Shown here in pieces: positions 1,991-20,399 of a stretch of 24,000 nucleotides of DNA. Each line of letters begins with the position of its first letter. Position 1 is the first letter of the stretch. Origin of the DNA: Pseudolactococcus piscium (GTDB taxonomy: Bacteria; Bacillota; Bacilli; Lactobacillales; Streptococcaceae); NCBI RefSeq assembly GCF_002441695.1, contig NZ_JXJW01000002.1:64060-88059 (forward strand). The letters are read 5' to 3'. The notes beneath the pieces were generated by a model. The model was not told where the DNA came from, did no database searches, and was given only the letters and a program-made list of their open reading frames with translations. The translations under genes and the position numbers were made by a program.

Positions 1991-2173
1991 TTTTTTGAAT
2001 AGATGATGCAATTGAAAAACTGAATCATTTAATTATTTGATAGCAACAAAAACTAGCCTAAGAGATTGGTTAGCATAGCGTAGATGATTGTAGTACCGTG
2101 ATTGTAAATGGTCTATAACTCCCTATATAATGGCTTTATAGTACATTAGAACGTCGTATAGAGATAGTAAGTG

Positions 2174-2182
2174 TGTTATAAT
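2174..2182 (+). promoter_or_regulatory. Extended -10 promoter (TGtTATAAT) directly abutting the exonuclease start codon
   Basis: TGTTATAAT at 2174-2182. Only 6 nt (TAACCT) separate it from the ATG at 2189, and no SD is present. No good -35. Confidence 0.5.
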
Positions 2183-2188
2183 TAACCT

Positions 2189-2785: not shown

Positions 2786-2814
2786 AGTTAATCTTTTAAT
2801 GAGGCAGGACCATC

Positions 2815-2847
2815 AAAAAAGACTATCTGTGAGTAGATAGTCTTTTT
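2815..2847. terminator. Bidirectional intrinsic terminator between the convergent exonuclease and TetR genes
   Basis: AAAAAA-GACTATCT-gtgagt-AGATAGTC-TTTTT: a perfect 8-bp stem flanked by an A-run and a T-run. Confidence 0.75.
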
Positions 2848-2849
2848 GA

Positions 2850-3398
2850 TTAGACATGCCCTTGAGATGCAAGCATTAGCATGAGGATGTCTCTAATTTC
2901 CTGTGGGCTTTCTTGCTTGCCTCTTTTAATCCAGAGCTGTAGGATACCAAATATCGCCTGAGATAGGTAAGTCGTCCGGTAATCAAGATTAACTTGATCA
3001 AGCGATTTTTGACCGAAGTTTGGGAAGATAACATCAGCTAAAAAATTTTTAATTTGTTGTATCAAGTACATATGAATTTCACGCGTTCCATTTTCAGAAA
3101 GTAAGGCTGACTCAACAGGACAGTCCGTGTCAAGAAACTTAAACAGTTCATAGATGGCAGCGCCTAAATCTGTATCATTTTCGCTAAATATGGCGGCTAG
3201 TCTTAAAAAAAAGGCGCTCTGATATTTGTCGATCATTTCATACTTATCTTGATAGTGGGTGTAGAAACTCGACCGACTAATGCCTGCACGTTTGACCAAT
3301 TCCGTCGTCGTGATATGGTCAAATGATTTTTCTTTGAGCAAGTCGCTCATGGCATGTTCGATAGCTTGATGTGTCTTTAGGATGCGAATGTCAGTCAT
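2850..3398 (-). CDS. TetR/AcrR-family transcriptional regulator
   Basis: 182-aa ORF with the N-terminal TetR HTH signature (FDHITTTELVKRAGISRSSFYTHYQDKYEMI). Divergent from the YhgE/Pip gene. Confidence 0.85.
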   Translation of the reverse strand: MTDIRILKTHQAIEHAMSDLLKEKSFDHITTTELVKRAGISRSSFYTHYQDKYEMIDKYQSAFFLRLAAIFSENDTDLGAAIYELFKFLDTDCPVESALLSENGTREIHMYLIQQIKNFLADVIFPNFGQKSLDQVNLDYRTTYLSQAIFGILQLWIKRGKQESPQEIRDILMLMLASQGHV

Positions 3399-3468
3399 AA
3401 TGAAAGCCTTTTCTATCTGTTTTTTTGAACAATAAGGTGCATACTGTCCAGTTTAGCCTATATAATTC

Positions 3469-3496
3469 TTGCTATATCTCATACAAGTATTATAAT
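3469..3496 (+). promoter_or_regulatory. Sigma-A-type promoter for the YhgE/Pip gene
   Basis: TTGCTA (3469-3474), 16-nt spacer, TATAAT (3491-3496). An AAAGGAG SD lies just before the ATG at 3556. Confidence 0.55.
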
Positions 3497-3555
3497 AAAA
3501 AAGGTAAATAAAGACAAGGTGTCCAAAAAATAAAACGATTAAAAAGGAGTTAGTA

Positions 3556-5904
3556 ATGTTAAAAAAAGAGTGGCAAGCAATACGTAAAAATAAATTTTTT
3601 ATTGTCATTATCATCGCGTTGATGACAATTCCAGCCCTATATAATCTGATATTCCTCAGTTCGATGTGGGATCCATACGGTAAAATATCTGATTTACCTG
3701 TTGCTGTGGTTAACCAAGACCAGTCAGCAGAAATTAACGGCAAGTCGGTCAATCTCGGAAAAGACCTAGCAGATGAGATGGCTAAGGGAAATGATCTAGA
3801 TTATCATTTTGTCAGTGATAGTACGGCACAAAAAGGATTGAAAGATGAGACCTATTTTATGGAGATCAAGATTCCAAGCGATTTCTCAAAAAATGCAGGT
3901 AGTCTGGTCAGTGATAAGCCAACATCGTCTACGATTCATTATCAAACCTCTAAAGGACATAACTTTATCGCCAGTAAGATGAGTGATTCGGCGATGGAGA
4001 AACTTAAAGAGAAGGTCTCTAAAAATATTACAGAAACCTATACAAAAACGATTTTTGAAAATCTGACGACCTTAGCTAGTGGCGTGACCAAAGCAGCAGA
4101 CGGTAGTAATCAATTAGTCGACGGTAGTCAAACTTTAAAATCAGGTTCTAGTGAAATTTCTAGCAACTTAGATAAATTAGCGACATCTAGCCTGACCTTT
4201 AAAGATGGTGCAGATACCCTAAATGTCGGCCTTGGCCAGTATATGGCTGGTGTATCGACTGTAAAAGATGGCTCAGCCGATTTATCACAAGCCGTAATGA
4301 AATATACTGATGGTGCAGCACAAATTGCTAATGGTACAAACCAACTCGCAACAGGAACAGCTAGTCTAGCAGCTGGTGTCTCTCAATTATCAAATAGTAA
4401 TGATAACGTACAAAAATTACTTGATGGTAGTGCAGCCCTTAGTGAGGGGATAGGAGATATATCAGCTGGCATTTCTATACCAAATCTGTCAGGCTTGAAA
4501 ACAGGAATAGCTAGTCTACAAAATGAAATTAATAGTGTTGAACTGGCTAAAATACCAGCAAGTTTGACTACGGATCTAGCTTATTTGAATACAGCGATTG
4601 ATACTTTAAAAACTGATCAAGAAAAAAATCTTGCAACACTTAAAGATACAGAAGCTTATAAATCACATCCGGAGGAACAAGCAACACTGGAGAGTTTAAT
4701 GAGCCCTTCCCCATCACTAGTTAAAAATATTAAGGATACAGCGACTGATATCCAAGCACAGATCACTTCATTGAGTACACATTTAGGGACTATTTCTGCT
4801 ATAAGTGCTAAAGCCTTACCAGGTGCAAATGTTGCTATTGATGGCTTAACAGGAATTAAAACAGGTGTTGATAGTAAACTTCAACCGGGTGCTATTCAGC
4901 TGAATGCTGGGCTTACTCAACTGCAAAGCGGTTTAGTTGATGGTGCCTCACAATTATCAGATGGCGCTAACAAACTCAACCAATCAACAGCGCAATTAAA
5001 CACGGGTGCGCAAACACTTGTTAGTAAAAATGCGGCGCTTAACGCAGGTAGTAGTAAACTTGCGACTGGTGCTGCGCAACTGACACAGAATTCACCTAAG
5101 TTATTAGATGGGTCAGCTCAGTTAGCAAGTGGTGCGGCACAAATTACAGATGGGTCAGGAAAACTTGCAAATGGTAGTAACACCTTAACAAGTGGGATCG
5201 GGACGCTAACAGCTGGTGCGACAACACTTAACACTGGCCTAACAGATGCTAAAACTAAACTTGCTGAAAATGCAACGGCTGAATTAAACGCTAAAAAAAT
5301 AGCAAGTCCGCTTAATATCACGCATCAAGACAAGGATAATTCACCAGAAAATGGTGTTGGTATGGCACCTTACATGATCTCTGTTGCCCTATTTGTTGGT
5401 GCTGTTGCAACCAATATGATCATTTCAGGCACTTTATCAGGAGAAAGTCCTAAGAGTCGTCGTGATTATCTACTTGCTAGAATCGGTGTGAATGGCTTGA
5501 TTGGTCTGGGAGAAGGCGTGCTAGTCTATCTAGCAGTTCATCTGCTTGGCTTGTCTGCCAATCATGAATTGGCTATGTTTGGCTTTACTGTATTAGTTGC
5601 GGTGTGCTTCATGTTCATCGTCACCTTCTTCAACACCTGGTTAGGCAAACCAGGCGCCTTCCTGATGCTGATTTTACTCCTGTTACAACTCGGCGCTAGT
5701 GCAGGGACTTACCCACTCGCCTTGACCAGCAATTTCTTCCAAAAATTAAATCCTTGGATGCCAATGACTTATGCTGTAAAAGGCTTTAGACAAGTGATTT
5801 CTTTGACAGGACAGATTGGTCAAGAAACTGGTATTTTACTTGCTATAACAGTCGTTTGCTTCATCTTACTATCGTTTGTCGGCTATAGAAAAGCAAAGGC
5901 TTAA
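3556..5904 (+). CDS. YhgE/Pip-family membrane protein (phage infection protein homologue)
   Basis: 782-aa ORF. Has one N-terminal TM helix, then a long Ala/Gly/Ser/Thr/Leu-rich ectodomain with degenerate repeats (e.g. DGSNQLVDGSQTLKSG, NGTNQLATGTASLAAG, DGANKLNQSTAQLNTG), then a C-terminal cluster of TM helices. This is the YhgE/Pip architecture. Confidence 0.85.
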   Translation: MLKKEWQAIRKNKFFIVIIIALMTIPALYNLIFLSSMWDPYGKISDLPVAVVNQDQSAEINGKSVNLGKDLADEMAKGNDLDYHFVSDSTAQKGLKDETYFMEIKIPSDFSKNAGSLVSDKPTSSTIHYQTSKGHNFIASKMSDSAMEKLKEKVSKNITETYTKTIFENLTTLASGVTKAADGSNQLVDGSQTLKSGSSEISSNLDKLATSSLTFKDGADTLNVGLGQYMAGVSTVKDGSADLSQAVMKYTDGAAQIANGTNQLATGTASLAAGVSQLSNSNDNVQKLLDGSAALSEGIGDISAGISIPNLSGLKTGIASLQNEINSVELAKIPASLTTDLAYLNTAIDTLKTDQEKNLATLKDTEAYKSHPEEQATLESLMSPSPSLVKNIKDTATDIQAQITSLSTHLGTISAISAKALPGANVAIDGLTGIKTGVDSKLQPGAIQLNAGLTQLQSGLVDGASQLSDGANKLNQSTAQLNTGAQTLVSKNAALNAGSSKLATGAAQLTQNSPKLLDGSAQLASGAAQITDGSGKLANGSNTLTSGIGTLTAGATTLNTGLTDAKTKLAENATAELNAKKIASPLNITHQDKDNSPENGVGMAPYMISVALFVGAVATNMIISGTLSGESPKSRRDYLLARIGVNGLIGLGEGVLVYLAVHLLGLSANHELAMFGFTVLVAVCFMFIVTFFNTWLGKPGAFLMLILLLLQLGASAGTYPLALTSNFFQKLNPWMPMTYAVKGFRQVISLTGQIGQETGILLAITVVCFILLSFVGYRKAKA

Positions 5905-7271: not shown

Positions 7272-8714
7272 ATGGATAAGTTTTTCAAACTTAAGGAAAA
7301 CGGTACAACAGTCAGTCGCGAGATTGTGGCTGGTTTAACAACATTTTTTGCAATGAGCTATATCTTGTTTGTCAACCCTGCGATTTTATCGCAAACAGGG
7401 ATGAACTATCAAGCAGTTTTTCTAGCAACAATCATCGCATCAATCATCGGTACGCTCATCATGGGACTTTTTGCTAATGTACCCTATGCACAAGCACCAG
7501 GTATGGGCTTAAATGCCTTCTTTACCTTCACAGTTGTCTTTGGCCTAGGTTATTCATGGCAACAGGCCCTTGCCATGGTCTTCATCTGTGGTATCATTAA
7601 TATCATTATTACGGTCACAAAAATACGTAAATTAATCATCAAATCAATTCCAGAAAGCTTGCAACATGCTATCGGTGGTGGTATCGGTGTCTTTATCGCC
7701 TATATCGGTATCAAATCAGCAGGCCTACTTCATTTTACAATCGATCCAGGGACTTATAAAGTCGTTGGTGAAGGTGCTGATAAAGGTAAGGCGACGATAG
7801 ATGCCAGTGCCGCAGCGATTCCTGCCTTAGTTAACTTTAACAGCCCAGCAGTCCTAATCGCTATTGTTGGTATTGTGTTGACAGCTGTATTAGTTGTTAA
7901 AAACTTCAAAGGTGCGATTTTAATCTCGATCATCACAACAACAATCTTAGCCATTATTTTTGGTGTAGTTGACCTTGGCTCAATCGACTTTAAGGCTAAC
8001 TCTTTAGGCTCTGCAATCGGTCATCTTGGTGATACCTTTGGTGCAGCCTTTGGTCACAAAGGGATGGGGACTTTATTCTCTGACTCTTCTAAAATTCCAC
8101 AGGTCTTGATGACGATTTTAGCCTTTTCATTATCAGATACCTTTGATACGATCGGTACTTTCATCGGAACAGGTCGTCGGACAGGCATTTTCTCTAAAGA
8201 AGATGAAAAATCTCTTGAAAATGGGTCAGGTTTCTCATCTAAGATGGATAAAGCCTTGTTTGCGGATGCAGTCGCAACTTCTATCGGTGCAATCTTTGGG
8301 ACATCAAATACAACAACTTATGTGGAGTCTGCAGCAGGTATCGGAGCTGGCGGTCGTACTGGTTTGACATCAGTCGTTACAGCGATTTGTTTCCTTTTCT
8401 CATCTTTCTTACTCCCATTTATCTCAGTTGTCCCTAGTGCAGCAACAGCGCCAGTTTTAATCGTCGTTGGTGTGATGATGCTAGGCTCATTTAAAGAAGT
8501 GAATTGGTCTGACCTAGAAGAAGCAATCCCTGCTTTCTTCGCCTCAATCTTCATGGGCTTTGCCTACAGTATTTCTTACGGTATCGCCGCAGGGTTTATC
8601 TTCTACACAATCATCAAAGTAGCTAAAGGTAAAGCAAAAGAAGTGAGTCCAGTTATCTGGGTCATCGATGTGTTATTCATTTTAAACTTTGTTATATTAG
8701 CAACCATTCAATAA
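7272..8714 (+). CDS. NCS2/AzgA-family purine (guanine/hypoxanthine/adenine) permease
   Basis: 480-aa polytopic membrane ORF. The N-terminus MDKFFKLKENGTTVSREIVAGLTTFFAMSYILFVNP is typical of PbuG/PbuO/AzgA-type permeases, and a PurBox lies upstream. The last 47 codons lie inside the island direct repeat. Confidence 0.85.
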   Translation: MDKFFKLKENGTTVSREIVAGLTTFFAMSYILFVNPAILSQTGMNYQAVFLATIIASIIGTLIMGLFANVPYAQAPGMGLNAFFTFTVVFGLGYSWQQALAMVFICGIINIIITVTKIRKLIIKSIPESLQHAIGGGIGVFIAYIGIKSAGLLHFTIDPGTYKVVGEGADKGKATIDASAAAIPALVNFNSPAVLIAIVGIVLTAVLVVKNFKGAILISIITTTILAIIFGVVDLGSIDFKANSLGSAIGHLGDTFGAAFGHKGMGTLFSDSSKIPQVLMTILAFSLSDTFDTIGTFIGTGRRTGIFSKEDEKSLENGSGFSSKMDKALFADAVATSIGAIFGTSNTTTYVESAAGIGAGGRTGLTSVVTAICFLFSSFLLPFISVVPSAATAPVLIVVGVMMLGSFKEVNWSDLEEAIPAFFASIFMGFAYSISYGIAAGFIFYTIIKVAKGKAKEVSPVIWVIDVLFILNFVILATIQ

Positions 8715-8730
8715 CAGATACTAAAAGCGC
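8574..8730. repeat. Left direct repeat (attL-like) of the integrative island
   Basis: 157 bp, identical to 16613-16769 except at 8696 (A vs C, a synonymous ATA/ATC Ile change) and 8721 (C vs T). It covers the last 141 nt of the permease ORF plus 16 nt downstream. Confidence 0.9.
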
Positions 8731-8812: not shown

Positions 8813-9727
8813 ATGGAAATAAATGAATATCTAAAAGAGTACTTACTAGAATGCAAAATAAGAAATTACAGCGCTCAAACAATCAAAGCAAAATCAATAA
8901 TTCTAAATGTGTTAATTAATTATTTATATAGTGAATTTGGAATCAATGATCTTGAAAAAATAAAAAAGGTACATATTCAATCTTACATTATTTTTGAAAT
9001 CGACAGGGGTAGAAAATCATCGACCGTTAACACTAAATTGAAAACATTAAAACCATTTTTTGATTATGCGCTTGACGAAGGTTATATAAAAGTAAATCCA
9101 TCTCGAAGTATTAAACTATTAAAAAATGAAAAAGCAGTTTTTACAGTCTTTAATGACAACGAGGTTTTGAAAATGATAGGCTATTGGAAAGGTGCATCAT
9201 ACACAGCAATTAAAAATAAACTTGTCATCTCAATGTTAGTTGATACAGGGATAAGGATAGGGGAGCTTACAAGCTTGTTGTTTGATGATGTTCAAGATAA
9301 TTGTATAAAGGTTCATGGTAAGGGCAACAAATGGCGTATAGTGCCTATATCACCCCAATTAAGAAAACTGATGCTGAAATATGAACGAAAAAGAAAAGAA
9401 ATCCTAGCAAAAAATAGCAAGGAGTCTGATTATTATTTCATTAATCAGTATAAGAATAAGATAGATGCAGTATCATCTTTTCAAAAAATGATAAAATACA
9501 CAGCAATTAAAGCAGGTGTTAGGGATAGTGTGAGGGCATCACCGCATACTTTTAGACATTATTATGTTATCAAAAGCCTAAGTCTAGGTACTCCTATTTA
9601 TCAAGTTTCAAAAAATATTGGGCATGAATCAATTAAGACAACTGAGATATACCTTAAACAGATAACAAATGAGCAAGTCGTTAATGAGCAAATTCAGAAA
9701 ACTATTTCACCATTATCTCACTTGTAA
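8813..9727 (+). CDS. Tyrosine recombinase / phage-type integrase (XerC/D-like size)
   Basis: 304-aa ORF with an N-terminal SAM-like domain. Catalytic-type residues are visible in DTGIRIGEL (Arg), HGKGNKWRIVPI (Lys), HTFRHYY (His-x-x-Arg) and GHESIKTTEIYL (His, Tyr). Confidence 0.85.
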   Translation: MEINEYLKEYLLECKIRNYSAQTIKAKSIILNVLINYLYSEFGINDLEKIKKVHIQSYIIFEIDRGRKSSTVNTKLKTLKPFFDYALDEGYIKVNPSRSIKLLKNEKAVFTVFNDNEVLKMIGYWKGASYTAIKNKLVISMLVDTGIRIGELTSLLFDDVQDNCIKVHGKGNKWRIVPISPQLRKLMLKYERKRKEILAKNSKESDYYFINQYKNKIDAVSSFQKMIKYTAIKAGVRDSVRASPHTFRHYYVIKSLSLGTPIYQVSKNIGHESIKTTEIYLKQITNEQVVNEQIQKTISPLSHL

Positions 9728-9787
9728 AATTCAAGTTTTATCAGGTATTTTGCAGTTTTAAATGTAGTAAATTACTAGGTTCAAAAA

Positions 9788-9796
9788 TGGTATAAT
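9788..9796 (+). promoter_or_regulatory. Extended -10 promoter (TGgTATAAT) of the KAP NTPase gene
   Basis: TGGTATAAT at 9788-9796. A GAGGTGA SD lies 6 nt before the ATG at 9831. Confidence 0.5.
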
Positions 9797-9830
9797 TATT
9801 TAAATAGACATAATTATATGAGGTGAAAAA

Positions 9831-11111
9831 ATGAAGAGACAAGATACAAACACAGCTGATGATGGTCAAATATCAGACCTATTTAAGAAAGATTTACTAA
9901 ACCGAAATGAAAACTTGTATGCACTCATTAATTTCATTAATGGTATTGAAGGGCAAATGATATTAAACATAGATGGTGCTTGGGGGACTGGGAAGTCAGT
10001 TTTTTTAAGGCAGTTAGAGTATATCTCTAGTACAAAAGAATATATTGATTATAGAGGAACTTCATATCAAAATATGGTAGATACTTTTAAGAAAGAATAT
10101 TTTTTATTTTATTTTAATTCATGGGAACATGATTTATACAACAATCCAATGGAATCACTGATTAGTGAATTATTGATGAAGATAGCATCTGAAAAGGACT
10201 ATGAAGATAAAATAAATGATGTTAAAGATGAGATAAATAATAAATTCAAGAAATTTACTGGTGATGGATTAAGAAGAGGAATAAAAATAATTTCGGGTGG
10301 TTTTATAGATTTAAATGATAAAAAAGTAGATGATACACTTGAAATAACTTCAGTAGGTTCTCAAAAAGAAGCAGTAAATAGTTTATTACAATTATTGTCA
10401 AGTATTACAGAAAAAAGAATACTAATTATAGTTGATGAACTAGATAGATGTAAGCCATCCTATGCAGTTGAATTATTAGAGGTTGTTAAGCACTTTTTCA
10501 CTCATGATGATGTCGTATTTTTATTTGGTACTAACAAGAATGAACTTGAGCATACTATTAAATCATTATACGGACAAGGATTTAATGGCTATAAATACTT
10601 AAATAGGTTTTTTGATTTTGAATTTTCATTACCAAATATTGATAAAGATAAATATATCGATAGAAAATATAGTGATGATTCCAATTTATTATTACATGAT
10701 TTTACTAAGTATTCTATTGACTATTTTAATCTTAGTATGCGTGATATTGAAAGATTATATGCGTTAATTAATGTTATAGGAACTAAAAAGAATTATCAGA
10801 ATAATCAAGATTATATCTTTATTGATTTTGTAATTGTAGTATATGCTATATGTCTTAAAATCGACAACGGAAATGGCTATAAAAAATTTATGGATGGACA
10901 AGGTAGAGATGATTTTTTACTATTTTGTGATGATTCTTTTCAAACAATTAATGAGATATATTATCGAAAAGAAAAAGATGAAATTATGGAAAAAATCAAC
11001 AATTTTTATAGTATGTTTCCTAACTTTTCTTATGATGGTCTTTATGGAAGAGATAGGGCATCTGAATATTTAAAAAACTCAATGAAATTACTTACGATGT
11101 TAAGTATATAA
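9831..11111 (+). CDS. KAP-family P-loop NTPase (soluble form, no TM insert)
   Basis: 426-aa ORF. Walker A GAWGTGKS (nt 9975-9998), the FNSWEHD motif, Walker B with the KAP signature IIVDELDRC (DELDRC = nt 10434-10451), and YLNRFFDFEFSLP (compare KAP YLEKIIQxPFxLP). No hydrophobic helices lie between Walker A and B. Confidence 0.8.
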   Translation: MKRQDTNTADDGQISDLFKKDLLNRNENLYALINFINGIEGQMILNIDGAWGTGKSVFLRQLEYISSTKEYIDYRGTSYQNMVDTFKKEYFLFYFNSWEHDLYNNPMESLISELLMKIASEKDYEDKINDVKDEINNKFKKFTGDGLRRGIKIISGGFIDLNDKKVDDTLEITSVGSQKEAVNSLLQLLSSITEKRILIIVDELDRCKPSYAVELLEVVKHFFTHDDVVFLFGTNKNELEHTIKSLYGQGFNGYKYLNRFFDFEFSLPNIDKDKYIDRKYSDDSNLLLHDFTKYSIDYFNLSMRDIERLYALINVIGTKKNYQNNQDYIFIDFVIVVYAICLKIDNGNGYKKFMDGQGRDDFLLFCDDSFQTINEIYYRKEKDEIMEKINNFYSMFPNFSYDGLYGRDRASEYLKNSMKLLTMLSI

Positions 11112-11131
11112 TATAGTTAAATAGCAAGAAG

Positions 11132-11166
11132 ACCAAATTATCGTAACTGATATTTTTGGTTTTTTT
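11132..11166 (+). terminator. Intrinsic terminator after the KAP NTPase gene
   Basis: ACCAAATTATC-gtaac-TGATATTTTTGGT is an imperfect hairpin, followed by a T-run at 11161-11166. Confidence 0.6.
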
Positions 11167-11360
11167 ATATTCAAATTCAACTATCAATCATACTATCTAT
11201 TAAACAGTTCAAATGCCTACCGCACACCTTACGGTGATTGGTGCTATAACGAGCTTTTCTATCGAAAACTCTATAGCGAATATATAATATCAAGTATTAT
11301 TTTGTGGGTTTTTGGATCTTGAATTATATCTTTATATCAGTTTAGTATATATTTATTCTT

Positions 11361-11383
11361 ATACCAAACCAATGTACACCTAT
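11361..11383 (+). repeat. Iteron-like 23-bp direct repeat, copy 1
   Basis: ATACCAAACCAATGTACACCTAT matches the copy at 11429-11451 at 19 of 23 positions. The last 12 nt (ATGTACACCTAT) are identical. Confidence 0.6.
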
Positions 11384-11428
11384 AATTTTATATATATATA
11401 CAAGTAAATTATACTTATAGTTATCTAT

Positions 11429-11451
11429 ATACAATACTGATGTACACCTAT
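11429..11451 (+). repeat. Iteron-like 23-bp direct repeat, copy 2
   Basis: ATACAATACTGATGTACACCTAT, starting 68 bp after copy 1. A degenerate third core (GCACACCTTA) lies at 11222-11231. Confidence 0.6.
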
Positions 11452-11648
11452 TTTCAATCACAACAATTAAAATTAATTTACAAAAAAGCTATTTTTGAGG
11501 GCCATTGGGCATGTCGCTCTGGGTTTATTATTAGGAGAATAAATATTTAAATTAATTTGTAAATTTACCCCCAAAAAATTGGCCATTTTGAAAACTTTTT
11601 GGCAATATAAGTAGATAGATATACAATTTAATTTAAAATAATTAACAC

Positions 11649-11687
11649 TATATATTGTGCCTTATAATTTCCAAACCACAATATATA
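11649..11687. promoter_or_regulatory. Operator-like 11-bp inverted repeat upstream of the small-ORF operon promoter
   Basis: TATATATTGTG (11649-11659) and CACAATATATA (11677-11687) are perfect reverse complements separated by 17 bp. The spacer contains a TATAAT (11663-11668). The right arm ends 10 bp before the -35 at 11698. Confidence 0.5.
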
Positions 11688-11697
11688 TTTGAGTGAG

Positions 11698-11725
11698 TTG
11701 ACAAATTATTATGAAATGGTATATT
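11698..11725 (+). promoter_or_regulatory. Near-consensus promoter of the small-ORF operon
   Basis: TTGACA (11698-11703), 16-nt spacer, then TGgTATATT (TG at 11717-11718, hexamer at 11720-11725). It predicts a 5' UTR of about 90 nt before the ATG at 11823. Confidence 0.65.
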
Positions 11726-11822
11726 AGATTAGGTATTAATTAAAAAGTTAATTATATTTAAAAAACACTCGACAATTTTTAAAAAATAAAAATAAAAATA
11801 AACAAATAAGGAAAAACGAAAT

Positions 11823-12098
11823 ATGCAAATTACATTAGAAGAATTATTTTATGATGATGAGTTTAAAGACATCATTAAAGAAAAATGGATAGTACAACTT
11901 CAGAAATTAGGTAAGTTACAGAGCAATACTAAAAATGGAATAATTACAGAATTGCTTAAGCAATATCAATCAGTTGAATATGTTAAAGGTAATAGAAGCA
12001 ACAAAGCACACTTTCAAATTGGTAGCAAGCGATCACAAGAAATAAGTCAAGCTGATATGATTGAAAAGGTTACTACAAAGCTAACGCTAATAACATAA
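11823..12098 (+). CDS. Hypothetical small protein (91 aa), first gene of the island operon
   Basis: ORF with an AAGGA SD (11808-11812) 10 nt before the ATG. No domain recognised. Confidence 0.5.
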   Translation: MQITLEELFYDDEFKDIIKEKWIVQLQKLGKLQSNTKNGIITELLKQYQSVEYVKGNRSNKAHFQIGSKRSQEISQADMIEKVTTKLTLIT

Positions 12099-12124
12099 AA
12101 ATTCATAACATCATTGCCTTGAAA

Positions 12125-12460
12125 ATGTTAAAAAAATATATTGTTGGTTTAGATGATGATGTGAAAGTCATGTCATTTACACGCTTAAATTGGCTTAAAG
12201 CAGCTGGGATCACTAGCAACATCAAAAACTTAAATGAAGTGGATGAAATGAAAAATATTGATTCAACTTTCAGAAGCTACTATAAAGATGATGTTGCATC
12301 AAGTTTGAAAAATGTGTTTAGTTTTTGCTTAAAGCAATTAAAAGTAAAAGAAGTTGATGCACCAGATTATTATTGCGATGCAGCTAATGATGATCAAGCA
12401 GATAGTGATGAAATGGTAATAAGAAAAGATTGCTGGATGACATCGAAGTTAAGAAAATGA
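12125..12460 (+). CDS. Hypothetical protein (111 aa from ATG 12125; the track starts at TTG 12119)
   Basis: ORF in operon orientation with an acidic C-terminal half (DAPDYYCDAANDDQADSDEM). No clear SD. Its stop overlaps the next ATG (ATGA at 12457-12460). Confidence 0.4.
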   Translation: MLKKYIVGLDDDVKVMSFTRLNWLKAAGITSNIKNLNEVDEMKNIDSTFRSYYKDDVASSLKNVFSFCLKQLKVKEVDAPDYYCDAANDDQADSDEMVIRKDCWMTSKLRK

Positions 12461-12681
12461 AAAGTTTTGTGGATGTTTTGAAGGCTAAACATAATGTTAC
12501 AAAATTCATGTTAGCGACAAGTGAATTCAAAAATGAGCTACGAGACAACTATAGAAATAATCTTAGATCTGAATCAATTTGGATTGAAATAGAATTAGAT
12601 ATTTCTAAACTAAAAAATGATATTAGTGATGCTGAATTAGCAAGTGATGAACTAAGATCACAATTCATGCTTGAGTTTTAG
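12457..12681 (+). CDS. Hypothetical small acidic protein (74 aa from ATG 12457; the track starts at TTG 12430)
   Basis: The ATGA overlap with the preceding ORF suggests translational coupling. Predicted helical and charged sequence. No domain recognised. Confidence 0.4.
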   Translation: MKSFVDVLKAKHNVTKFMLATSEFKNELRDNYRNNLRSESIWIEIELDISKLKNDISDAELASDELRSQFMLEF

Positions 12682-12744
12682 AAATATCGTAATAGCACCT
12701 ATATAAGACGAGAATTTAAAAGGAAAATTAAAGGCAAAAAAGAA

Positions 12745-13029
12745 ATGTTCTGGCGTTATGAAACAGGGTTACAAGAACAACCATCGAACTTTTCGCCTTA
12801 TTTACAGATGGAAAATAGAACCTATTTCAAGTTTATGACTGTGCTTGATCAACAAATCGGATTTGCTGAAGCTGATGTGACTGAGTATTCCAAAATGGAA
12901 AAAGAATATAAAGCAACAGTTGAAGACAATGAAGCGATTAAACTTGTAGATGATTGCAAGCAAAATAATATCATTTACTTGCATACACATACGAAAACAA
13001 ATAATGAATTAGACAAATTGTTTAAATAG
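12745..13029 (+). CDS. Hypothetical small acidic protein (94 aa)
   Basis: ORF in operon orientation with an AAAGG SD-like sequence about 10 nt upstream. No domain recognised. Confidence 0.45.
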   Translation: MFWRYETGLQEQPSNFSPYLQMENRTYFKFMTVLDQQIGFAEADVTEYSKMEKEYKATVEDNEAIKLVDDCKQNNIIYLHTHTKTNNELDKLFK

Positions 13030-13047
13030 AAAAAGGAATATAAGAAA

Positions 13048-13149
13048 ATGGAAATGATTACACTTAAACAACACATGACAAAAACAGCTGATAGCAAAGT
13101 TAAAGTTCTAAATGTTGATAAAGAAAAATTGGATAAAAAAGCAGCTTAA
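13048..13149 (+). CDS. Hypothetical micro-protein (33 aa, MEMITLKQHMTKTADSKVKVLNVDKEKLDKKAA); not in the ORF track
   Basis: AAGGA SD exactly 10 nt before the ATG, the same SD spacing as neighbouring ORFs. Read by eye from the sequence. Confidence 0.4.
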   Translation: MEMITLKQHMTKTADSKVKVLNVDKEKLDKKAA

Positions 13150-13203
13150 TTAATAGTTGATAAGTTGTTTAACTAATATAATAGAAAAAAGGATAATATA
13201 AAT

Positions 13204-13368
13204 ATGACTAAAACAGAAAAAGAACTACTAAACGAAGAATTTTTAAAGACTTTGAAAATGGGTCTACAAATTTCAAATATTCAAGCTGATTTGCTAGAAA
13301 GCAACATGAGTGAATTAGATAAGAAAATGACTAAACTAGACGATGATATGAACGAAGCAATAAAATAA
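13204..13368 (+). CDS. Hypothetical coiled-coil-like micro-protein (54 aa, MTKTEKELLNEEFLKTLKMGLQISNIQADLLESNMSELDKKMTKLDDDMNEAIK); not in the ORF track
   Basis: AAGGA SD 10 nt before the ATG. Lies opposite the implausible antisense track ORF 13281-13544. Confidence 0.45.
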   Translation: MTKTEKELLNEEFLKTLKMGLQISNIQADLLESNMSELDKKMTKLDDDMNEAIK

Positions 13369-13450
13369 ATAGTAACATATGTTGTAAATGTTTTTAAATG
13401 GGAGATTAAAAAATATAAGTGGGGTTCTTTAGTTGAAGGAAAACTAAAGA

Positions 13451-13561
13451 ATGAACAAGACAGAATTAGAAAAAGACACAGTACAAATAGCTGGAATGGT
13501 TGCAAAAGATGGAATAGAAGAACGAGTATATAGCGCTCAAACAAGTTGTGATGATATTTAA
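13451..13561 (+). CDS. Hypothetical micro-protein (36 aa, MNKTELEKDTVQIAGMVAKDGIEERVYSAQTSCDDI); not in the ORF track
   Basis: GAAGGA SD 10 nt before the ATG. Its 3' end overlaps the start of the next ORF (13548/13551). Confidence 0.4.
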   Translation: MNKTELEKDTVQIAGMVAKDGIEERVYSAQTSCDDI

Positions 13562-13742
13562 AGTTTTAGCTGACATGTATGACAGCATGCTAAGTTACTT
13601 ATTTAGCAAAGCGTTTAGTCATGTTGACAAAGGAATTGCATTGCAAAGTTTTAAAGAAAATCAAGTCAAACAGTTTGCTTATATGTTAGTAAATGTATTA
13701 TACGATGAAAAAGAATTGTTGGAAATGAAGTTGGTGGCATAA
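13548..13742 (+). CDS. Hypothetical small protein (64 aa; GTG 13548 or ATG 13551), last gene of the operon
   Basis: The ORF overlaps the preceding micro-ORF, suggesting coupling, and is followed immediately by a strong hairpin terminator. Confidence 0.4.
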   Translation: MMIFKVLADMYDSMLSYLFSKAFSHVDKGIALQSFKENQVKQFAYMLVNVLYDEKELLEMKLVA

Positions 13743-13743
13743 T

Positions 13744-13779
13744 AAAACTCTTTACCCTAAAAAAATGGTAAGGAGTTTT
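13744..13779. terminator. Bidirectional intrinsic terminator between convergent island genes
   Basis: AAAACTCTTTACC-ctaaaaaaat-GGTAAGGAGTTTT: a 13-bp stem with one G-U pair and A/T-rich flanks on both sides. Confidence 0.75.
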
Positions 13780-13785
13780 ATTTAA

Positions 13786-14169
13786 TTAAAAAATTAGTTT
13801 GTAATCAGATATGGCAATAGTAATATCATAGTCATAGCGATAGTTATGAATACCTTTATAATTAGTTGTTTTTATAAGGATATGATTTATTATATCCTCT
13901 TTTGGTATTTTAAAAATTTCACGAAATACATCAAAACCACTATATAAAATTCTGCCTTTTTCATCATTTTTTTTAAAAAGTGCGTTTAAATTAGAATTTA
14001 TTTTGTTTTCTTCTAAGAGGAATCTAAAAGTATTTTTTTCTATTTCTTTAAACAGAATTAAATTTTCTTTATTATCTAGTTCATTGTATTCTTTTAGGGT
14101 AACAAGATTAGATTTTTTTAGCAATGTGGTTAATTCGGTAATAGCAACATTATAGTCATTATCAGTCAT
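13786..14169 (-). CDS. Hypothetical protein (127 aa), island orphan
   Basis: Minus-strand ORF bounded by the terminator at 13744-13779 and its own extended -10 promoter at 14201-14209. The SD is weak. No domain recognised. Confidence 0.45.
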   Translation of the reverse strand: MTDNDYNVAITELTTLLKKSNLVTLKEYNELDNKENLILFKEIEKNTFRFLLEENKINSNLNALFKKNDEKGRILYSGFDVFREIFKIPKEDIINHILIKTTNYKGIHNYRYDYDITIAISDYKLIF

Positions 14170-14200
14170 TGTTATTCTTCTATCTATTTTATTTAAGTAT

Positions 14201-14209
14201 ATTATAGCA
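14201..14209 (-). promoter_or_regulatory. Extended -10 promoter (minus strand TGcTATAAT) for ORF 13786-14169
   Basis: Plus-strand ATTATAGCA at 14201-14209 is TGCTATAAT on the minus strand, about 32 nt upstream of the start codon. Confidence 0.5.
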
Positions 14210-14257
14210 TATAATTAAGATCAAACAGACTGATTATATGTTATTACTAAAGGTTAA

Positions 14258-14286
14258 TTGCTTTAGCTTTTTTATTGTATTATAAT
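14258..14286 (+). promoter_or_regulatory. Sigma-A-type promoter for ORF 14309-14641
   Basis: TTGCTT (14258-14263), 17-nt spacer, TATAAT (14281-14286). Sits back-to-back with the minus-strand promoter. Confidence 0.55.
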
Positions 14287-14308
14287 TAAATTAGAAAGCG
14301 GTGATGCA

Positions 14309-14641
14309 ATGACAATAGAAAAATATAGAATTTTATATTATGAAGATATTATTAAAGAACTTGAAAATGATGAGTGCATGTTTTTTCTAGAAATTCAAAA
14401 CTGTGAAATAGTTAGACGAGTATATAAAAAGGTACATAAAGGATTTGGTGGAAAACATAAGGTAGTTTATTATAATTTTACTAAATCCATGATGAATTTT
14501 AATGATATTAATGTATATTTTCAAAGTGAAGATTGTGAACAAGAGCTAATAAATTGTAAAGAAACAGATAAAATAAATAAAGTTGATTGGATAAAGAATA
14601 ATACAAGATATATTGTATTTAAATATAAGATTAGTATTTAA
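14309..14641 (+). CDS. Hypothetical protein (110 aa), island orphan
   Basis: ORF with a GGTGA SD-like sequence 4 nt upstream and its own promoter. Lys/Asn/Tyr-rich. No domain recognised. Confidence 0.45.
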   Translation: MTIEKYRILYYEDIIKELENDECMFFLEIQNCEIVRRVYKKVHKGFGGKHKVVYYNFTKSMMNFNDINVYFQSEDCEQELINCKETDKINKVDWIKNNTRYIVFKYKISI

Positions 14642-14669
14642 TTTTGAAATATCTAAAAGAGAATAGAAC

Positions 14670-14851
14670 ATGGAAAGATACCTTTTAAAAGCTGATGAGA
14701 GTGATTCAGAGAGAGCAAGATATAATGGCAGTTTAGAAGAAAAGAACTTTCTTTTGAAGAGTATGTGTACAATTATTCGTACTTGATAGAGAAATTATAT
14801 GAAGACAATGAAAGTAAATTTAAAGACTCTGACATTATGTCAAGTTCTTAG
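14670..14851 (+). pseudogene. Small ORF with an apparent frameshift; its final codon and stop come from the IS terminal repeat
   Basis: Frame 1 reads MERYLLKADESDSERARYNGSLEEKNFLLKSMCTIIRT and stops at 14784-14786. A second frame with no start codon continues as RRKELSFEEYVYNYSYLIEKLYEDNESKFKDSDIMSSS. Its TCT-TAG (14846-14851) lies inside the IS left inverted repeat. Confidence 0.4.
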
Positions 14852-14878
14852 AGTAGAAATAGTATAAATTCTCTTAAA

Positions 14879-15739
14879 TTAAGCAGTCATCTTTTCAAAC
14901 TGATTAGGAGTTAAATATCCTAAACTTTGATGAATGCGTTTTGAATTGTAAAAAGCTTCAATATACCAAAAAATGCTTTGATAGGCTTCTTCAAAATTTC
15001 TGTACTTAAATTGGTAAGTCCATTCTCTCTTTAAATGTCCATGCCACGATTCAAGGGTAGCATTATGATAAGGATAGCCTTTTCTGCTAAATGAGTGAGC
15101 CATGCCATGATCCTCAACTAACGTTTGATATTCATTGCTTGTATATTGACTTCCCTGATCAGAATGCAAGATAATTGAGCTCGTCTCTCCTTGAGACACA
15201 ATAGCTTTCTTCAAGGTACGTTGGAATAACTTAACAGTCATATGTTTATCTAAATCCCAAGCAATAATTTGTTTAGTATAGCGGTCCATAATGGTTGAGA
15301 GGTAGCACCAGCCTTTGCTAGTTGAGATATAAGTAATGTCAGTTGACCAGACCTTGTTCTTCGCTATAGGTTCAGTTAACACCATATTTTGACGGTCAAT
15401 GGTGTTAACTGAAGTGTGTGCTGGTTTGAAGTTTTTAGTGACGAGGGACTTCAAAGAGAGCTCCTTCATCAATTTTTGAACAAGTTTTATGCCAATTTTT
15501 TCTCCCTGCTTAAGTAACAGTTGATGAACTTTAGGTGCACCATAGATAGCTCGATTCTATTTGAATAGCTGACCAATCTTCAAGGATAACTCTTGACGTC
15601 TTAATTGGGTTTTGGACGGGAGATGATTGATTCGTTTATAATAACTTGACTCTGGAACACCAAGTAATTGACAACTTAATCTGATATTGAGTGCTAAAAT
15701 TTGTATTGTTTGCGTCATATCCACAGCACTCAATTCATT
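14879..15739 (-). pseudogene. IS3-family transposase OrfB (DDE/rve domain) interrupted by one in-frame TAG
   Basis: The frame is open from about 15739 and is -1 relative to orfA, overlapping it at GAGAAAATGA. The only interruption is an in-frame TAG (minus strand, 15559-15557) in QLFK*NRAIYGAPK. DDE residues are visible in WSTDITY, HSDQGSQY and NATLESWHGHLK. Confidence 0.8.
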
Positions 15740-15990
15740 TTCTCTGCGAATATGGTCAATACTTTTTTTAAGATATCTCGTTCCTCTTTAACCTGTGTTA
15801 GCTGTCTTTTTAGTTCAAGATAGTCAGATTTTGATATTGAGTTGTCATTAGGCTTTGAATAGAGGTCAATCCATTTATAGATGGTTGCAGGAGATATACC
15901 ATATTCTTTAGCTAGATGAGCTACCGATTGACCTGTTTGATATAAGTCAACAATTGTTTCTTTAAAATCTTTTGAGTATCGTTTTTGCAT
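15730..15990 (-). CDS. IS3-family transposase OrfA (HTH DNA-binding, leucine-zipper-like C-terminus)
   Basis: 86-aa ORF, MQKRYSKDFKETIVDLYQTGQSVAHLAKEYGISPATIYKWIDLY... Typical IS3 OrfA. It resembles lactococcal and streptococcal IS3 members from memory (unverified). Confidence 0.85.
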   Translation of the reverse strand: MQKRYSKDFKETIVDLYQTGQSVAHLAKEYGISPATIYKWIDLYSKPNDNSISKSDYLELKRQLTQVKEERDILKKVLTIFAEKMN

Positions 15991-16139
15991 AGTTTCTTCC
16001 TTCTGTATAAATTATACAATATCGACTCTAAGATTTTAGGATAGCATCAATTGTACTTATAAATTTTTTAGAGAAAATACTTGAGAGGTTAAAAATATAT
16101 TTAGAAAATAAAAGAGTAAAAAAGGGTTTTAATAATATA

Positions 16140-16373
16140 ATGATGACTTTAACAGATTCTGAGAAAAGGATAGTTTACTTAATTTTTGATAATGATACGT
16201 ACAATTTCAATGTCTGGGGAGATGCATCCTTAACAAAATTAACTAAACTCGGTGTAATATATTCAAATAGATTAGGTGGATTGACTACAGGACTTTCTTA
16301 TGGCTTGCAGCCTATGACAAGACAGTATTTAATTGATAATTCTAGTTATTTGTCTGATATAAAGAGTAAATGA
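16140..16373 (+). CDS. Hypothetical small protein (77 aa), last island ORF
   Basis: ORF between the IS and the right end of the island. The SD is weak and distant. No domain recognised. Confidence 0.35.
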   Translation: MMTLTDSEKRIVYLIFDNDTYNFNVWGDASLTKLTKLGVIYSNRLGGLTTGLSYGLQPMTRQYLIDNSSYLSDIKSK

Positions 16374-16460
16374 AATTTAAGCTTACATTAAGCCATTATT
16401 TGTATACTGTACTTACCCCAAAATTAGTAACATACTTTTTTCATAATTACAAACTCCTTT

Positions 16461-16496
16461 AAAAAAACATCTTGATGTGAATTGAGATGTTTTTTT
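16461..16496. terminator. Bidirectional intrinsic terminator near the right end of the island
   Basis: AAAAAAACATCT-tgatgtgaattg-AGATGTTTTTTT: the stem ACATCT/AGATGT extended by A-U pairs. Confidence 0.6.
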
Positions 16497-16561
16497 GTTT
16501 CAAATTTAAGCAAACTTACGGCTTTCCAACACCTATTTTGATAGATTTTTGCTTTTATATA

Positions 16562-16581
16562 TGCTATAATAGCGGTATAAT
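16562..16581 (+). promoter_or_regulatory. Outward-facing tandem -10 elements at the island right end
   Basis: TGcTATAAT (16562-16570) and GGTATAAT (hexamer 16576-16581), 32-50 bp before the right direct repeat and pointing out of the island. Confidence 0.45.
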
Positions 16582-16612
16582 CAAAACAAAAATATAATTT
16601 TTTAAGTTCTAA

Positions 16613-16769
16613 TCTTACGGTATCGCCGCAGGGTTTATCTTCTACACAATCATCAAAGTAGCTAAAGGTAAAGCAAAAGAAGTGAGTCCAGTTATCTGGG
16701 TCATCGATGTGTTATTCATTTTAAACTTTGTTATCTTAGCAACCATTCAATAACAGATATTAAAAGCGC
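16613..16769. repeat. Right direct repeat (attR-like): an orphan copy of the permease 3' end
   Basis: 155 of 157 positions identical to 8574-8730. Encodes the same last 47 codons (SYGIAAGF...ILATIQ*) but is preceded by an in-frame TAA, so it is a non-functional gene fragment. Confidence 0.9.
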
Positions 16770-16809
16770 TATTTTGTTTAACTTAGGTTAAGTAAAGTCG
16801 CTTTTTTTT
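16762..16809 (+). terminator. Probable native terminator of the permease gene, displaced to the right of the island
   Basis: A long imperfect hairpin with outer stem AAAAGCG...CGCTTTT and inner stem TTAAC/GTTAA, followed by an 8-nt T-run (16802-16809). Confidence 0.5.
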
Positions 16810-16866
16810 ATTTTGTAGCAGTCATTAGCTGACTATCATACTGCTCCAGAAAAGGTGCTGAAAACG

Positions 16867-16901
16867 ACTTGATTTTGAAATCAAGTTAATCATGATATAA
16901 T
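16867..16901 (+). promoter_or_regulatory. 20-bp perfect palindrome plus extended -10 promoter upstream of the small membrane protein operon
   Basis: ACTTGATTT-tg-AAATCAAGT (16867-16886), followed by TGaTATAAT (16893-16901). Confidence 0.45.
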
Positions 16902-16998
16902 AGAGCTGTTAGTTTTTTTAAGGATAACAGATATGAAGTCTATTCATCGATATCTCAGTGTATCATGACACTATTTCTAAGGACAAGAAAGGACGAGG

Positions 16999-17118
16999 AT
17001 GAACAAGGGCATTCTGATTTTAGCAATTATATTAACAATAGGACTAGGATTTCTTAATCCTTTACTTGCACTGATAGCAGCAGGCGTTATTATTTTTAAG
17101 GTAGTCAAAGGGGATTGA
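16999..17118 (+). CDS. Small hydrophobic membrane peptide (39 aa, MNKGILILAIILTIGLGFLNPLLALIAAGVIIFKVVKGD); not in the ORF track
   Basis: AAAGGACGAGG SD directly before the ATG. The peptide is almost entirely one or two TM segments. It ends 4 nt before the next ORF. Confidence 0.45.
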   Translation: MNKGILILAIILTIGLGFLNPLLALIAAGVIIFKVVKGD

Positions 17119-17122
17119 ACAG

Positions 17123-17749
17123 ATGTTTTTATTAAAGGGGTTTAAAAAAATGTTAACGCTAAAGGTTGCCTTAGGCTGGTTAATTTTAGTGGCGGTTGGC
17201 TTCCTTGTGTTCTCAGTGATTAATGCCGGTGCTTATAAGCAGAAAGAGAATAAGCAATCATATTCTCTAGTTAAATATATTAAGCAAGCCAATGAGACCG
17301 TCTTTTTAAATGTTGGTGTGCAATCGATCGAGACGAAAGCAAACAACACAACGATTCCTTGGACTAAAATCGGCATTCCACTTACTGAGAAAAAAGCAGT
17401 CATCATCCTGAATTTTGAGGCAAAGTTAGGGATCAAAAAAGCAGTTGACGTGGCTAAATTAAGTGAGAACAGCTACAAGATTACAGTACCAAAGTATGAC
17501 GTGATTGGTATCGCTTTAGATAAAACAGCGCCTTATCAGCTATATGATGCGAGTGGTGAGTTGTTGAGCTACTCTACTTCTGATATTGATACAGGGGAAC
17601 TGGTCACAAAAAAATTGTCTAATGCTAAGCAAAAAGACTATTTGAAGCAGTATAAGGATCAAATGAATAATGCGGCAAAGGCCTACTATCAAGCACTATT
17701 TAGCGCAATTGATAAAAATATTAGGTTAACATTTTCCTTTGCAGAGTAA
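17123..17749 (+). CDS. Membrane-anchored hypothetical protein (possibly DUF4230-like)
   Basis: 208-aa ORF (alternative start ATG 17150) with one N-terminal TM helix (LGWLILVAVGFLVFSVI) and a soluble domain. The family assignment is from memory of the general architecture only. Confidence 0.6.
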   Translation: MFLLKGFKKMLTLKVALGWLILVAVGFLVFSVINAGAYKQKENKQSYSLVKYIKQANETVFLNVGVQSIETKANNTTIPWTKIGIPLTEKKAVIILNFEAKLGIKKAVDVAKLSENSYKITVPKYDVIGIALDKTAPYQLYDASGELLSYSTSDIDTGELVTKKLSNAKQKDYLKQYKDQMNNAAKAYYQALFSAIDKNIRLTFSFAE

Positions 17750-17805
17750 GACATATTAGCATGAGTTTAAGTGAATTTTCTAGTTTTTCTCATCAAATAG
17801 TAAGG

Positions 17806-17834
17806 CACTTGTAAACTTTAACAGGTGTTTTTTT
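17806..17834 (+). terminator. Intrinsic terminator after ORF 17123-17749
   Basis: CACTTGTAA-acttt-AACAGGTG is an imperfect hairpin, followed by a 7-nt T-run. Confidence 0.55.
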
Positions 17835-17842
17835 GATATAAT
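17834..17842 (+). promoter_or_regulatory. Extended -10 promoter (TGaTATAAT) of ispG
   Basis: TGATATAAT at 17834-17842, about 48 nt upstream of the TTG start at 17891. Confidence 0.45.
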
Positions 17843-17890
17843 TTAAGAGGTACGACTAGTAGTTGTCAAATAAAGAAAGTAGGTCGAGTT

Positions 17891-19024: not shown

Positions 19025-19046
19025 GAAAGAAGTGGGTAGTTAGCGC

Positions 19047-20069: not shown

Positions 20070-20088
20070 TAAAACGCTATAATAAATC

Positions 20089-20119
20089 GTATGGGAAATA
20101 TAGACCCATACTTTTTTTT
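20089..20119 (+). terminator. Intrinsic terminator after the DUF218 gene
   Basis: GTATGGG-aaatataga-CCCATAC followed by an 8-nt T-run. Confidence 0.75.
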
Positions 20120-20386: not shown

Positions 20387-20399
20387 AAAACCGAACGAT
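20387..20399 (+). promoter_or_regulatory. PurBox-like PurR binding site upstream of purF
   Basis: AAAACCGAACGAT matches 12 of 13 positions of AWWWCCGAACWWT. Its centre lies about 77 nt upstream of the TSS predicted from the TAGAAT -10 at 20458-20463. Confidence 0.6.

Follow-up and report, generated by a model that had tools for sequence, protein, structure and literature searches.

Why would an otherwise decayed prophage keep an intact gene for a small KAP-family ATPase? The question is raised by a stretch of 24,000 nucleotides (nt) of Pseudolactococcus piscium DNA (contig NZ_JXJW01000002.1, positions 64,060 to 88,059 of the forward strand), called the window below and numbered from its first letter. 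Its KAP gene is retained, together with an integrase gene, in a prophage remnant of 8 kb that has otherwise decayed. The reading that we favour, with a probability of about 0.6, is that the gene is an autonomous anti-phage immunity gene, carried by the prophage, sufficient as a single gene and belonging to the PDC-S20 family. The specific mechanism by which such a protein would stop a phage is considerably less certain, and is discussed separately from the anti-phage role itself.

The KAP protein and its assignment to PDC-S20

The KAP-type protein of 426 amino acids (aa) is encoded by an intact open reading frame (ORF), and is 100% identical to Lactococcus piscium RU86_GL001034. A first-pass annotation of the locus had placed it in the KAP family, and profile search supports this placement: Pfam KAP_NTPase (PF07693) matches residues 32 to 275 with 118.3 bits, for a gathering cutoff of 20 (E = 5e-34). 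The four motifs on which the annotation had relied are all present where it had located them, namely Walker A GAWGTGKS at residues 49-56 (nt 9975-9998), FNSWEHD at residues 95-101 (nt 10113-10133), Walker B IIVDELDRC at residues 199-207 (nt 10425-10451) and YLNRFFDFEFSLP at residues 256-268 (nt 10596-10634). Because the motifs sit at these positions, its numbering of K55 and D202/E203 is also correct. When 48 relatives were aligned, W51, G52, G54, K55, W98, D101, D202, E203, D205, R206 and C207 were invariant, as were the DELDRC-P motif, the residues E217, K220 and H221, and R304 in the C-terminal part; N235 was near-invariant. N235 would be a sensor-1-like residue and R304 a lid arginine. Judged by its sequence, the protein is predicted to be a cytoplasmic P-loop NTPase with a full catalytic set (K55, D202/E203, N235, R206/R304).

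KAP proteins were reportedly first described with transmembrane (TM) segments inserted in or beside the NTPase domain. There is no TM insert here, Kyte-Doolittle hydropathy in the stretch from Walker A to Walker B peaking at 0.45 (19-residue windows), and the site at which the originally described members are said to bear TM segments is occupied by the disordered insert of residues 145-172. The absence of a TM insert had been noted in the first-pass annotation and stands; its view that a TM-less protein departs from the family does not, as PifA, one of the two namesakes of the family, also lacks TM helices (PMC13001434).

The locus had been put forward as a single-gene defence candidate, and the PADLOC profiles class the protein in the same way, as single-gene candidate PDC-S20. 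Model PDLC04959 of this class matches residues 15-361 (E = 7e-62, 208 bits) and three other PDC-S20 models give E values of 1e-39 to 4e-28, the assignment being by hidden Markov model (HMM) score. The PDCs are a set of 145 untested single- or multi-gene candidates, derived from genes that lie within BREX, DISARM or type I restriction-modification systems (10.1101/2024.01.29.577857). Since a short, soluble architecture is already catalogued as PDC-S20, the TM-less, one-gene layout of the window protein is not surprising.

A conserved core and a recombining C-terminus

The two parts of the protein have had different histories. Compared with the KAP protein of L. carnosus (locus L001, 59% identity overall), the N-terminal ~270 residues, disordered insert excluded, are 69-89% identical, and the C-terminus only 32-33%. 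Over the whole family, mean identity is 58% in the core and 17-26% in the C-terminus. At the nucleotide level, the match to L. carnosus stops at position 10633, which is exactly the domain boundary. The ratio of nonsynonymous to synonymous substitution rates (dN/dS), measured against four relatives, rises from 0.05-0.14 in the core to 0.34-0.53 in the C-terminus, and remains below 1 in all regions. Synonymous divergence (dS) changes at the boundary, in opposite directions depending on the relative chosen: against locus L169 the N-terminal part gives 0.79 and the C-terminus 0.17, and against locus L170 the values are 0.27-0.48 and 0.93, respectively. Such a mosaic across the domain boundary points to recombination that reassorts C-terminal modules. 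On a larger scale, the integrases placed ahead of the KAP genes of L. piscium and L. carnosus share only 31% identity, meaning that the KAP cassette itself moves between elements. The family is thereby shown to join a slow-evolving ATPase core to a fast-evolving, allele-swapping C-terminal module.

The AlphaFold model of the full-length protein (mean predicted local distance difference test, pLDDT, of 84.2; predicted template-modelling score, pTM, of 0.83) shows a P-loop core, after which residues 272-423 are entirely helical. When this model was compared with the PDB using Foldseek, the best matches were the RdrA rings of RADAR (E = 3e-5, TMq ~0.5), followed by ORC4, clamp-loader and STAND proteins; the family profile retrieved no PDB sequence. 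The C-terminus modelled alone is predicted with a pLDDT of 86.3, and its best Foldseek matches have E values of 1.7 in the PDB and 0.84 in BFVD, a database of predicted viral structures. The earlier impression that this part of the protein resembles nothing recognisable is therefore borne out, as the module matches no fold in either database. Residues 276-426 contain 11.3% D, 9.9% I, 9.3% Y, 9.3% L and 8.6% N. With an isoelectric point (pI) of ~5.0, each half of the protein is acidic, a weak argument against its binding nucleic acids as QatA does.

Despite its low overall identity, the module keeps a scaffold of motifs (YFNFsMRDIxR, PYAIGLKI, FxxGxG, Y393, LxMLS and the invariant R304). A TM helix at residues 326-347, where the 19-residue hydropathy value of 1.72 is just above threshold, was considered and rejected, the equivalent segment scoring below 1.6 in 36 of the 48 relatives. 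The helix at ~326-347 carries the conserved amphipathic motif PYAIGLKI and is modelled with a pLDDT of 93-95. A profile of the module, searched against 1.84 billion proteins, gave 763 representatives (clusters at 50% identity). With one exception, P0141, the matches listed have the same ~400-490-aa architecture or are fragments, and a promiscuous domain found in varied proteins was ruled out on that ground. P0141, of 479 aa, has the module at residues 85-274, a fragment of a Recombinase domain on its N-terminal side and a SEC-C motif on its C-terminal side, and could represent either a true fusion or a chimera of gene calling. The most plausible reading of the C-terminus is that of a helical module belonging to the ATPase and specific to this family, rather than an unrelated effector.

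Genomic setting and the weighing of explanations

GC content falls from ~0.40 to 0.24-0.31 between positions ~8500 and ~16500. This AT-rich island is flanked by two direct repeats of 157 nt, 99% identical, whose host gene is a xanthine/uracil-permease gene (7272-8714); the repeats indicate that an element of 8.0 kb integrated in the 3′ end of that gene. Neither a tRNA-type att site nor an Rfam structured RNA was found on scanning the window, and a megablast search of 50,697 phage records with island DNA gave nothing. The first gene of the element encodes the integrase (Pfam Phage_integrase, E = 3e-26, with a SAM-like N-terminal domain; PHROG 1, E = 2e-46), and the KAP gene lies directly downstream in the same orientation, as the first-pass annotation had described. 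In the L. carnosus element, the integrase gene and the KAP gene are followed by early genes, then by HNH, TerS, TerL, portal, protease and capsid genes. The early-gene remnants of the window match positions 13479-13715, 14592-14702 and 15441-15579 of the L. carnosus locus, a second early-gene fragment lies at 14243-14294, and an L. carnosus gene of 303 aa is cut down to an ORF of 64 aa. We conclude that the island is a decayed phage-like element, because only fragments of early genes of this type remain. Apart from an IS3-family insertion sequence (IS), its intact element genes are the integrase and the KAP gene only. Feature coordinates are collected in Table 1.

Table 1. Features of the island and of its KAP gene, in window coordinates
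Feature	Position	Strand	Basis or remark
attL-type direct repeat	8574-8730		Last 141 nt of permease gene + 16 nt
Tyrosine recombinase (integrase), intact, 304 aa	8813-9727	+	Pfam, PHROG
Extended -10, TGgTATAAT	9788-9796	+	Read from sequence; TG 9788-9789, TATAAT 9791-9796
Shine-Dalgarno, GAGGTG	9820-9825	+	Read from sequence; 5 nt before ATG; kept in related loci
KAP-family P-loop NTPase gene, PADLOC PDC-S20 member	9831-11111	+	Pfam, PADLOC profiles
NTPase domain, residues 32-275	9924-10655	+	Pfam match; holds Walker A, FNSWEHD, DELDRC and YLNRFFDFEFSLP
Disordered insert, residues 145-172	10263-10346	+	pLDDT <50; 29% mean identity
Fast-evolving all-helical C-terminal module, residues 269-426	10635-11108	+	AlphaFold, nine helices
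GC-poor hairpin and T-run, probable weak intrinsic terminator	11126-11166	+	Folding energy
Early-gene remnants common to the L. carnosus phage-like element	13168-13746	+	blastn, 70-78% identity
IS3-family insertion sequence	14879-15990	-	orfA 15730-15990, orfB 14879-15472
attR-type direct repeat, displaced copy of permease 3′ end	16613-16769		Repeat comparison

The KAP gene has expression signals of its own, as had been proposed. The extended -10 element is kept as TGGTATAAT or TGTTATAAT, invariant or near-invariant, in an alignment of five homologous loci, and was skipped by a consensus promoter scanner because it has no good -35 element; it is followed by a Shine-Dalgarno sequence, likewise kept in four related loci. 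The hairpin beyond the stop codon folds at -13.8 kcal/mol (z = -4.1 compared with shuffled sequences), and is a plausible but weak terminator, being GC-poor, with a long loop, and having failed the criteria of the consensus scanner. The gene is then followed by 710 nt of non-coding DNA and by small ORFs, none of which has a Pfam, PHROG or PADLOC match at the threshold of E ≤ 0.001, so that the earlier statement that no partner gene is adjacent holds as far as a partner would be recognisable by such matches. A partner among the small ORFs of the island was sought and rejected, the matches found being marginal (JetD, E = 0.003; phrog_26556, E = 0.005; Cas7, E = 0.03).

Homologues were surveyed at 596 or more loci in species-representative genomes and at 420 or more in IMG/VR viral contigs. 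Neighbourhoods were counted within 6 kb at 78 genome loci and 79 viral loci, with locally iterated HMMs for Hsd proteins, and neighbour families were tallied over 150 immediate neighbours for each of the two sets. The homologous ORFs have a median length of 467 aa, 113 of 157 being in the range of 450-499 aa. Among genome neighbours, the Pfam families counted most often were Methylase_S (7), N6_Mtase (6), AAA_21 (6), AAA_15 (5) and Eco57I (4), with two each for type ISP, GmrSD, Mrr and ApeA-HEPN; housekeeping families reach only 2-3 each. Viral neighbours include Phage_GPD (14), Peptidase_S24 repressors of CI type (8), integrases (7, plus 4 Int_N), and also AbiEii, YoeB, RES and RloB. Homologues are found in restriction-modification (R-M) operons, in defence islands and in the accessory slots of prophages rather than in housekeeping neighbourhoods, a setting typical of immunity genes and in agreement with the defence role suspected in the first-pass annotation. 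Phage_GPD corresponds to gpD-type tail genes, the KAP family often filling the accessory slot that ends P2-like prophages; this end was recently described as a defence hotspot (PMC13586616).

The R-M operons invite another explanation, in which the protein would depend on R-M as a PrrC-like guard that fires when phage anti-restriction disables the type I enzyme, the prophage copy then acting in trans or being inactive. PrrC in EcoprrI works with a type I R-M enzyme. Homologues of 39-42% identity occupy the slot between hsdS and hsdR, in the order hsdM-hsdS-KAP-hsdR, in Enterococcus viikkiensis, Vagococcus jeotgali and a metagenome-assembled genome (MAG), with gaps of 3 to ~40 nt that are consistent with co-transcription; loci L011, L015, L042, L070 and L086 are further embedded or flanked cases. 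The paper describing the PDCs also labels PrrC as almost exclusively embedded in type I R-M (10.1101/2024.01.29.577857). Hsd-like genes are nevertheless present within 6 kb at only 17 of the 78 genome loci, several of these with KAP between Hsd genes, and are missing at that distance from the other 61 and from every one of the 79 viral loci. The 24-kb window itself contains no hsd genes, the closest relatives (72-87% nucleotide or 58-59% amino-acid identity) have no adjacent R-M, and the C-terminal module contains no PrrC-like nuclease domain. We therefore hold R-M dependence to be unlikely for the window gene.

It is less likely still, in our opinion, that the ATPase serves the element rather than its host, for instance in integration, excision, partition or exclusion of competing elements. 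The order of the genes is what suggests it: in the window, as well as in L. carnosus and two metagenomic contigs, KAP comes directly after the integrase and on the same strand, and a tyrosine integrase lies within 6 kb at 24 of 79 viral loci, directly adjacent in eight of them; in a deposited Vibrio prophage the homologue is likewise integrase-proximal. Against such a role, the two dissimilar integrases, which use different att sites, accompany one and the same N-terminal KAP module (80% nucleotide identity), a tyrosine integrase lies within 6 kb at only 6 of 78 genome loci, and many homologues belong to chromosomal R-M operons with no recombinase gene directly adjoining. Slighter still is the chance that the gene is an intact, yet currently functionless, passenger of a dying prophage. 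The island has certainly lost its replication and structural genes and received an IS3, and its remaining ORFs, integrase and transposase aside, are short and without matches. This has however not touched the KAP gene, which keeps a full-length ORF, every catalytic residue, its promoter and Shine-Dalgarno sequence and a dN/dS well below 1 against four relatives, and which is one of only two element genes, IS3 aside, to have outlasted the decay.

Several points also weigh against reading the gene as an autonomous immunity gene. The step that blocks the phage or kills the cell is one that we infer entirely, no effector domain being recognisable, and an effector fold in the C-terminus is ruled out in so far as it would be recognisable by a PDB or BFVD match. 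The enrichment of the neighbourhoods is argued from raw counts, and relatives of the gene occur in only 5 of 50,697 deposited phage genomes. We found no literature that names PDC-S20, text supplementary tables of the PDC paper included, and no experiment on the window protein or on any PDC-S20 member. Lastly, the validated KAP defences differ in architecture, possessing TM helices and/or long C-terminal regions.

If the gene does provide immunity, it may work as follows. The variable, acidic C-terminal module would be the specificity surface, recognising a protein made by the phage. This recognition would switch the ATPase, probably in an oligomer that forms a ring, as RdrA and QatA do, and the block to phage growth would come from the ATPase, either by consumption of ATP or by the ATP-driven remodelling or sequestering of a complex, be it of the phage or of the host. 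Blocking is attributed to the ATPase itself because no nuclease, protease, pore or NADase domain is recognisable; by analogy, Tmn is a precedent for ATP turnover within a defence mechanism. A bolder proposal, which we put forward as tentative and rather doubtful, is that an effector-less KAP ATPase of 426 aa is a complete immune protein, whose hypervariable, swapping C-terminus reads a phage protein and whose ring is the weapon, exhausting ATP or spending it to take apart a phage complex, and that in the R-M-embedded relatives the same switch guards the type I enzyme from anti-restriction proteins of phages, the family being a KAP-based analogue of PrrC taken up by phages and satellites as a portable module.

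A number of observations were made on the flanking DNA and on related loci. In the gap that follows the KAP gene (11112-11822), there is an imperfect direct repeat of 36 nt (11348-11383 and 11416-11451, 78% identical), and the region's best sigma-70-like site (TTGACA-16-TATATT, with a TG) is found at 11698-11725, ahead of the ORF that starts at 11823. Positions ~11550-11770 of the gap are weakly similar to the L. carnosus element and may be the early promoter/operator region of that element. The largest unmatched minus-strand ORF of the island, IS3 genes aside, is at 13786-14169 (127 aa); the marginal JetD match in PADLOC (E = 0.003) is to this ORF, which has no Pfam or PHROG match. In the IS3, orfB matches Pfam rve, rve_2 and rve_3 and orfA matches HTH_Tnp_1; a short ORF between them (15557-15733) suggests that the start of orfB is frameshifted or disrupted. 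To the right of attR, an ORF of 39 aa (16999-17118) precedes an intact DUF4230 gene (17123-17749). A 3′ fragment of a DUF4230 gene is also present between integrase and KAP in an IMG/VR contig (L089, 1485-1787), which suggests that related elements use neighbouring att sites here, or tandem capture.

At the L. carnosus locus, positions 8936-21281 are all transcribed in one direction, and a weak match to a replication initiator follows KAP. The locus stops short of the place where tail genes would lie, and the element may be either a temperate phage of small size or a satellite that forms capsids. In V. jeotgali (L005, 7192-15110) and in the MAG (L008, 1878-9776), the hsdM-hsdS-KAP-hsdR operon is followed by a gene of 215-218 aa with an EcsC domain (PF12787), and this conserved neighbour may point to a partner in their subclade; no EcsC gene was found among the window ORFs scanned. 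Locus L170 has an AAA_13 protein of 805 aa (ABC-type, RloC/PrrC-like; 1787-4204) 250 nt past a KAP gene 72% identical to that of the window. Together they may constitute a small defence cluster; the AAA_13 neighbour is missing from the window and from L. carnosus.

If the window gene is active, it would give the first functional handle on PDC-S20, that is, on widespread minimal KAP ATPases with no recognisable effector, and would pose a mechanistic puzzle, that of a phage blocked by an ATPase plus a helical bundle of 158 aa. The natural swaps of C-terminal alleles would provide ready-made specificity chimeras. As the family occurs both as a prophage moron and embedded in R-M operons, it is a test case for the traffic of defence modules between hosts and mobile elements. 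Assuming that the gene protects, its practical relevance would lie in the phage resistance of lactococci in food fermentation and spoilage.

Comparison with known systems

A one-gene KAP defence had been considered unusual in the first-pass annotation. Precedents contradict this, since PifA, Tmn, EF_KAP with three metagenomic KAPs, and Reve are all single-gene systems. PifA, responsible for T7 exclusion by the F plasmid, is like the window protein a TM-less KAP NTPase encoded by a single gene on a mobile element. The PADLOC PifA model matches in the NTPase region only (positions 40-256 of 720, E = 5e-12), and PifA has a long C-terminal part with no equivalent here. It is reported to act on the membrane, with depolarisation and leakage of nucleotides (PMC13001434), whereas nothing in the window protein suggests membrane association. 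EF_KAP and the three metagenomic KAPs of the RADS study are single-gene KAP NTPases whose protection of E. faecalis, shown by experiment, depends on Walker B (PMC12632615, PMC13552941); they resemble the present case in being single genes of Bacillota beside recombinases. Compared by description, EF_KAP has TM helices, a region of 322 aa of unknown function and adjacent serine recombinases, and the window protein is soluble, with a C-terminal module of 158 aa and an adjacent tyrosine recombinase. Reve, in which one protein combines ATPase and KAP P-loop domains, was found in P4 hotspots and is reported to be strongly protective (PMC13586616); the likeness, again by description only, is that of a single-gene KAP in a defence hotspot of a mobile element.

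RdrA, the best structural match, is a defence ATPase that forms rings, is ~twice as long, shares 11-14% identity with the window protein and works with the deaminase RdrB; at the window locus there is no deaminase gene and no match to a RADAR model of PADLOC. QatA had been named as a KAP-type precedent, rightly so, as it is described as a KAP-family NTPase that is heptameric or octameric (PMC13279940), but the window protein is not itself a QatA. NCBIfam NF041923 gives 50.2 bits for a cutoff of 600 and aligns only residues 184-247, the similarity being local, around Walker B; the PADLOC QatA match (E = 3e-10) is limited to the NTPase region, and the island has no qatB, qatC (QueC-like) or qatD (TatD) genes. 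QatA moreover binds DNA, in contrast to what the acidity of the window protein would suggest.

Tmn, of the YobI family, is comparable in its design: it is a single-gene P-loop NTPase defence, with no recognisable effector, in which ATP turnover is part of the mechanism. It differs in that its P-loop domain contains two TM helices and in assembling as a membrane decamer; the window protein has no TM segment, and no Tmn model of PADLOC matches it. PrrC and RloC are comparable through the hsdS-hsdR slot held by the ~40%-identity homologues and through an NTPase that regulates a C-terminal module, PrrC however combining an ABC-type ATPase with a nuclease domain, and the window protein a KAP ATPase with a helical module.

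The sharp contrast of the conserved core with the recombining C-terminus, and the dual life of this KAP family, integrase-proximal and R-M-embedded, were not found reported in our searches. The nearest known class remains PDC-S20, whose members are of the same length class and of which some are embedded in type I R-M operons. The window copy differs from these in being integrase-proximal rather than embedded, and in having its last ~65 residues outside the profile match. Placed among these systems, the KAP gene is credible as an immunity gene but does not represent a novel type of system.

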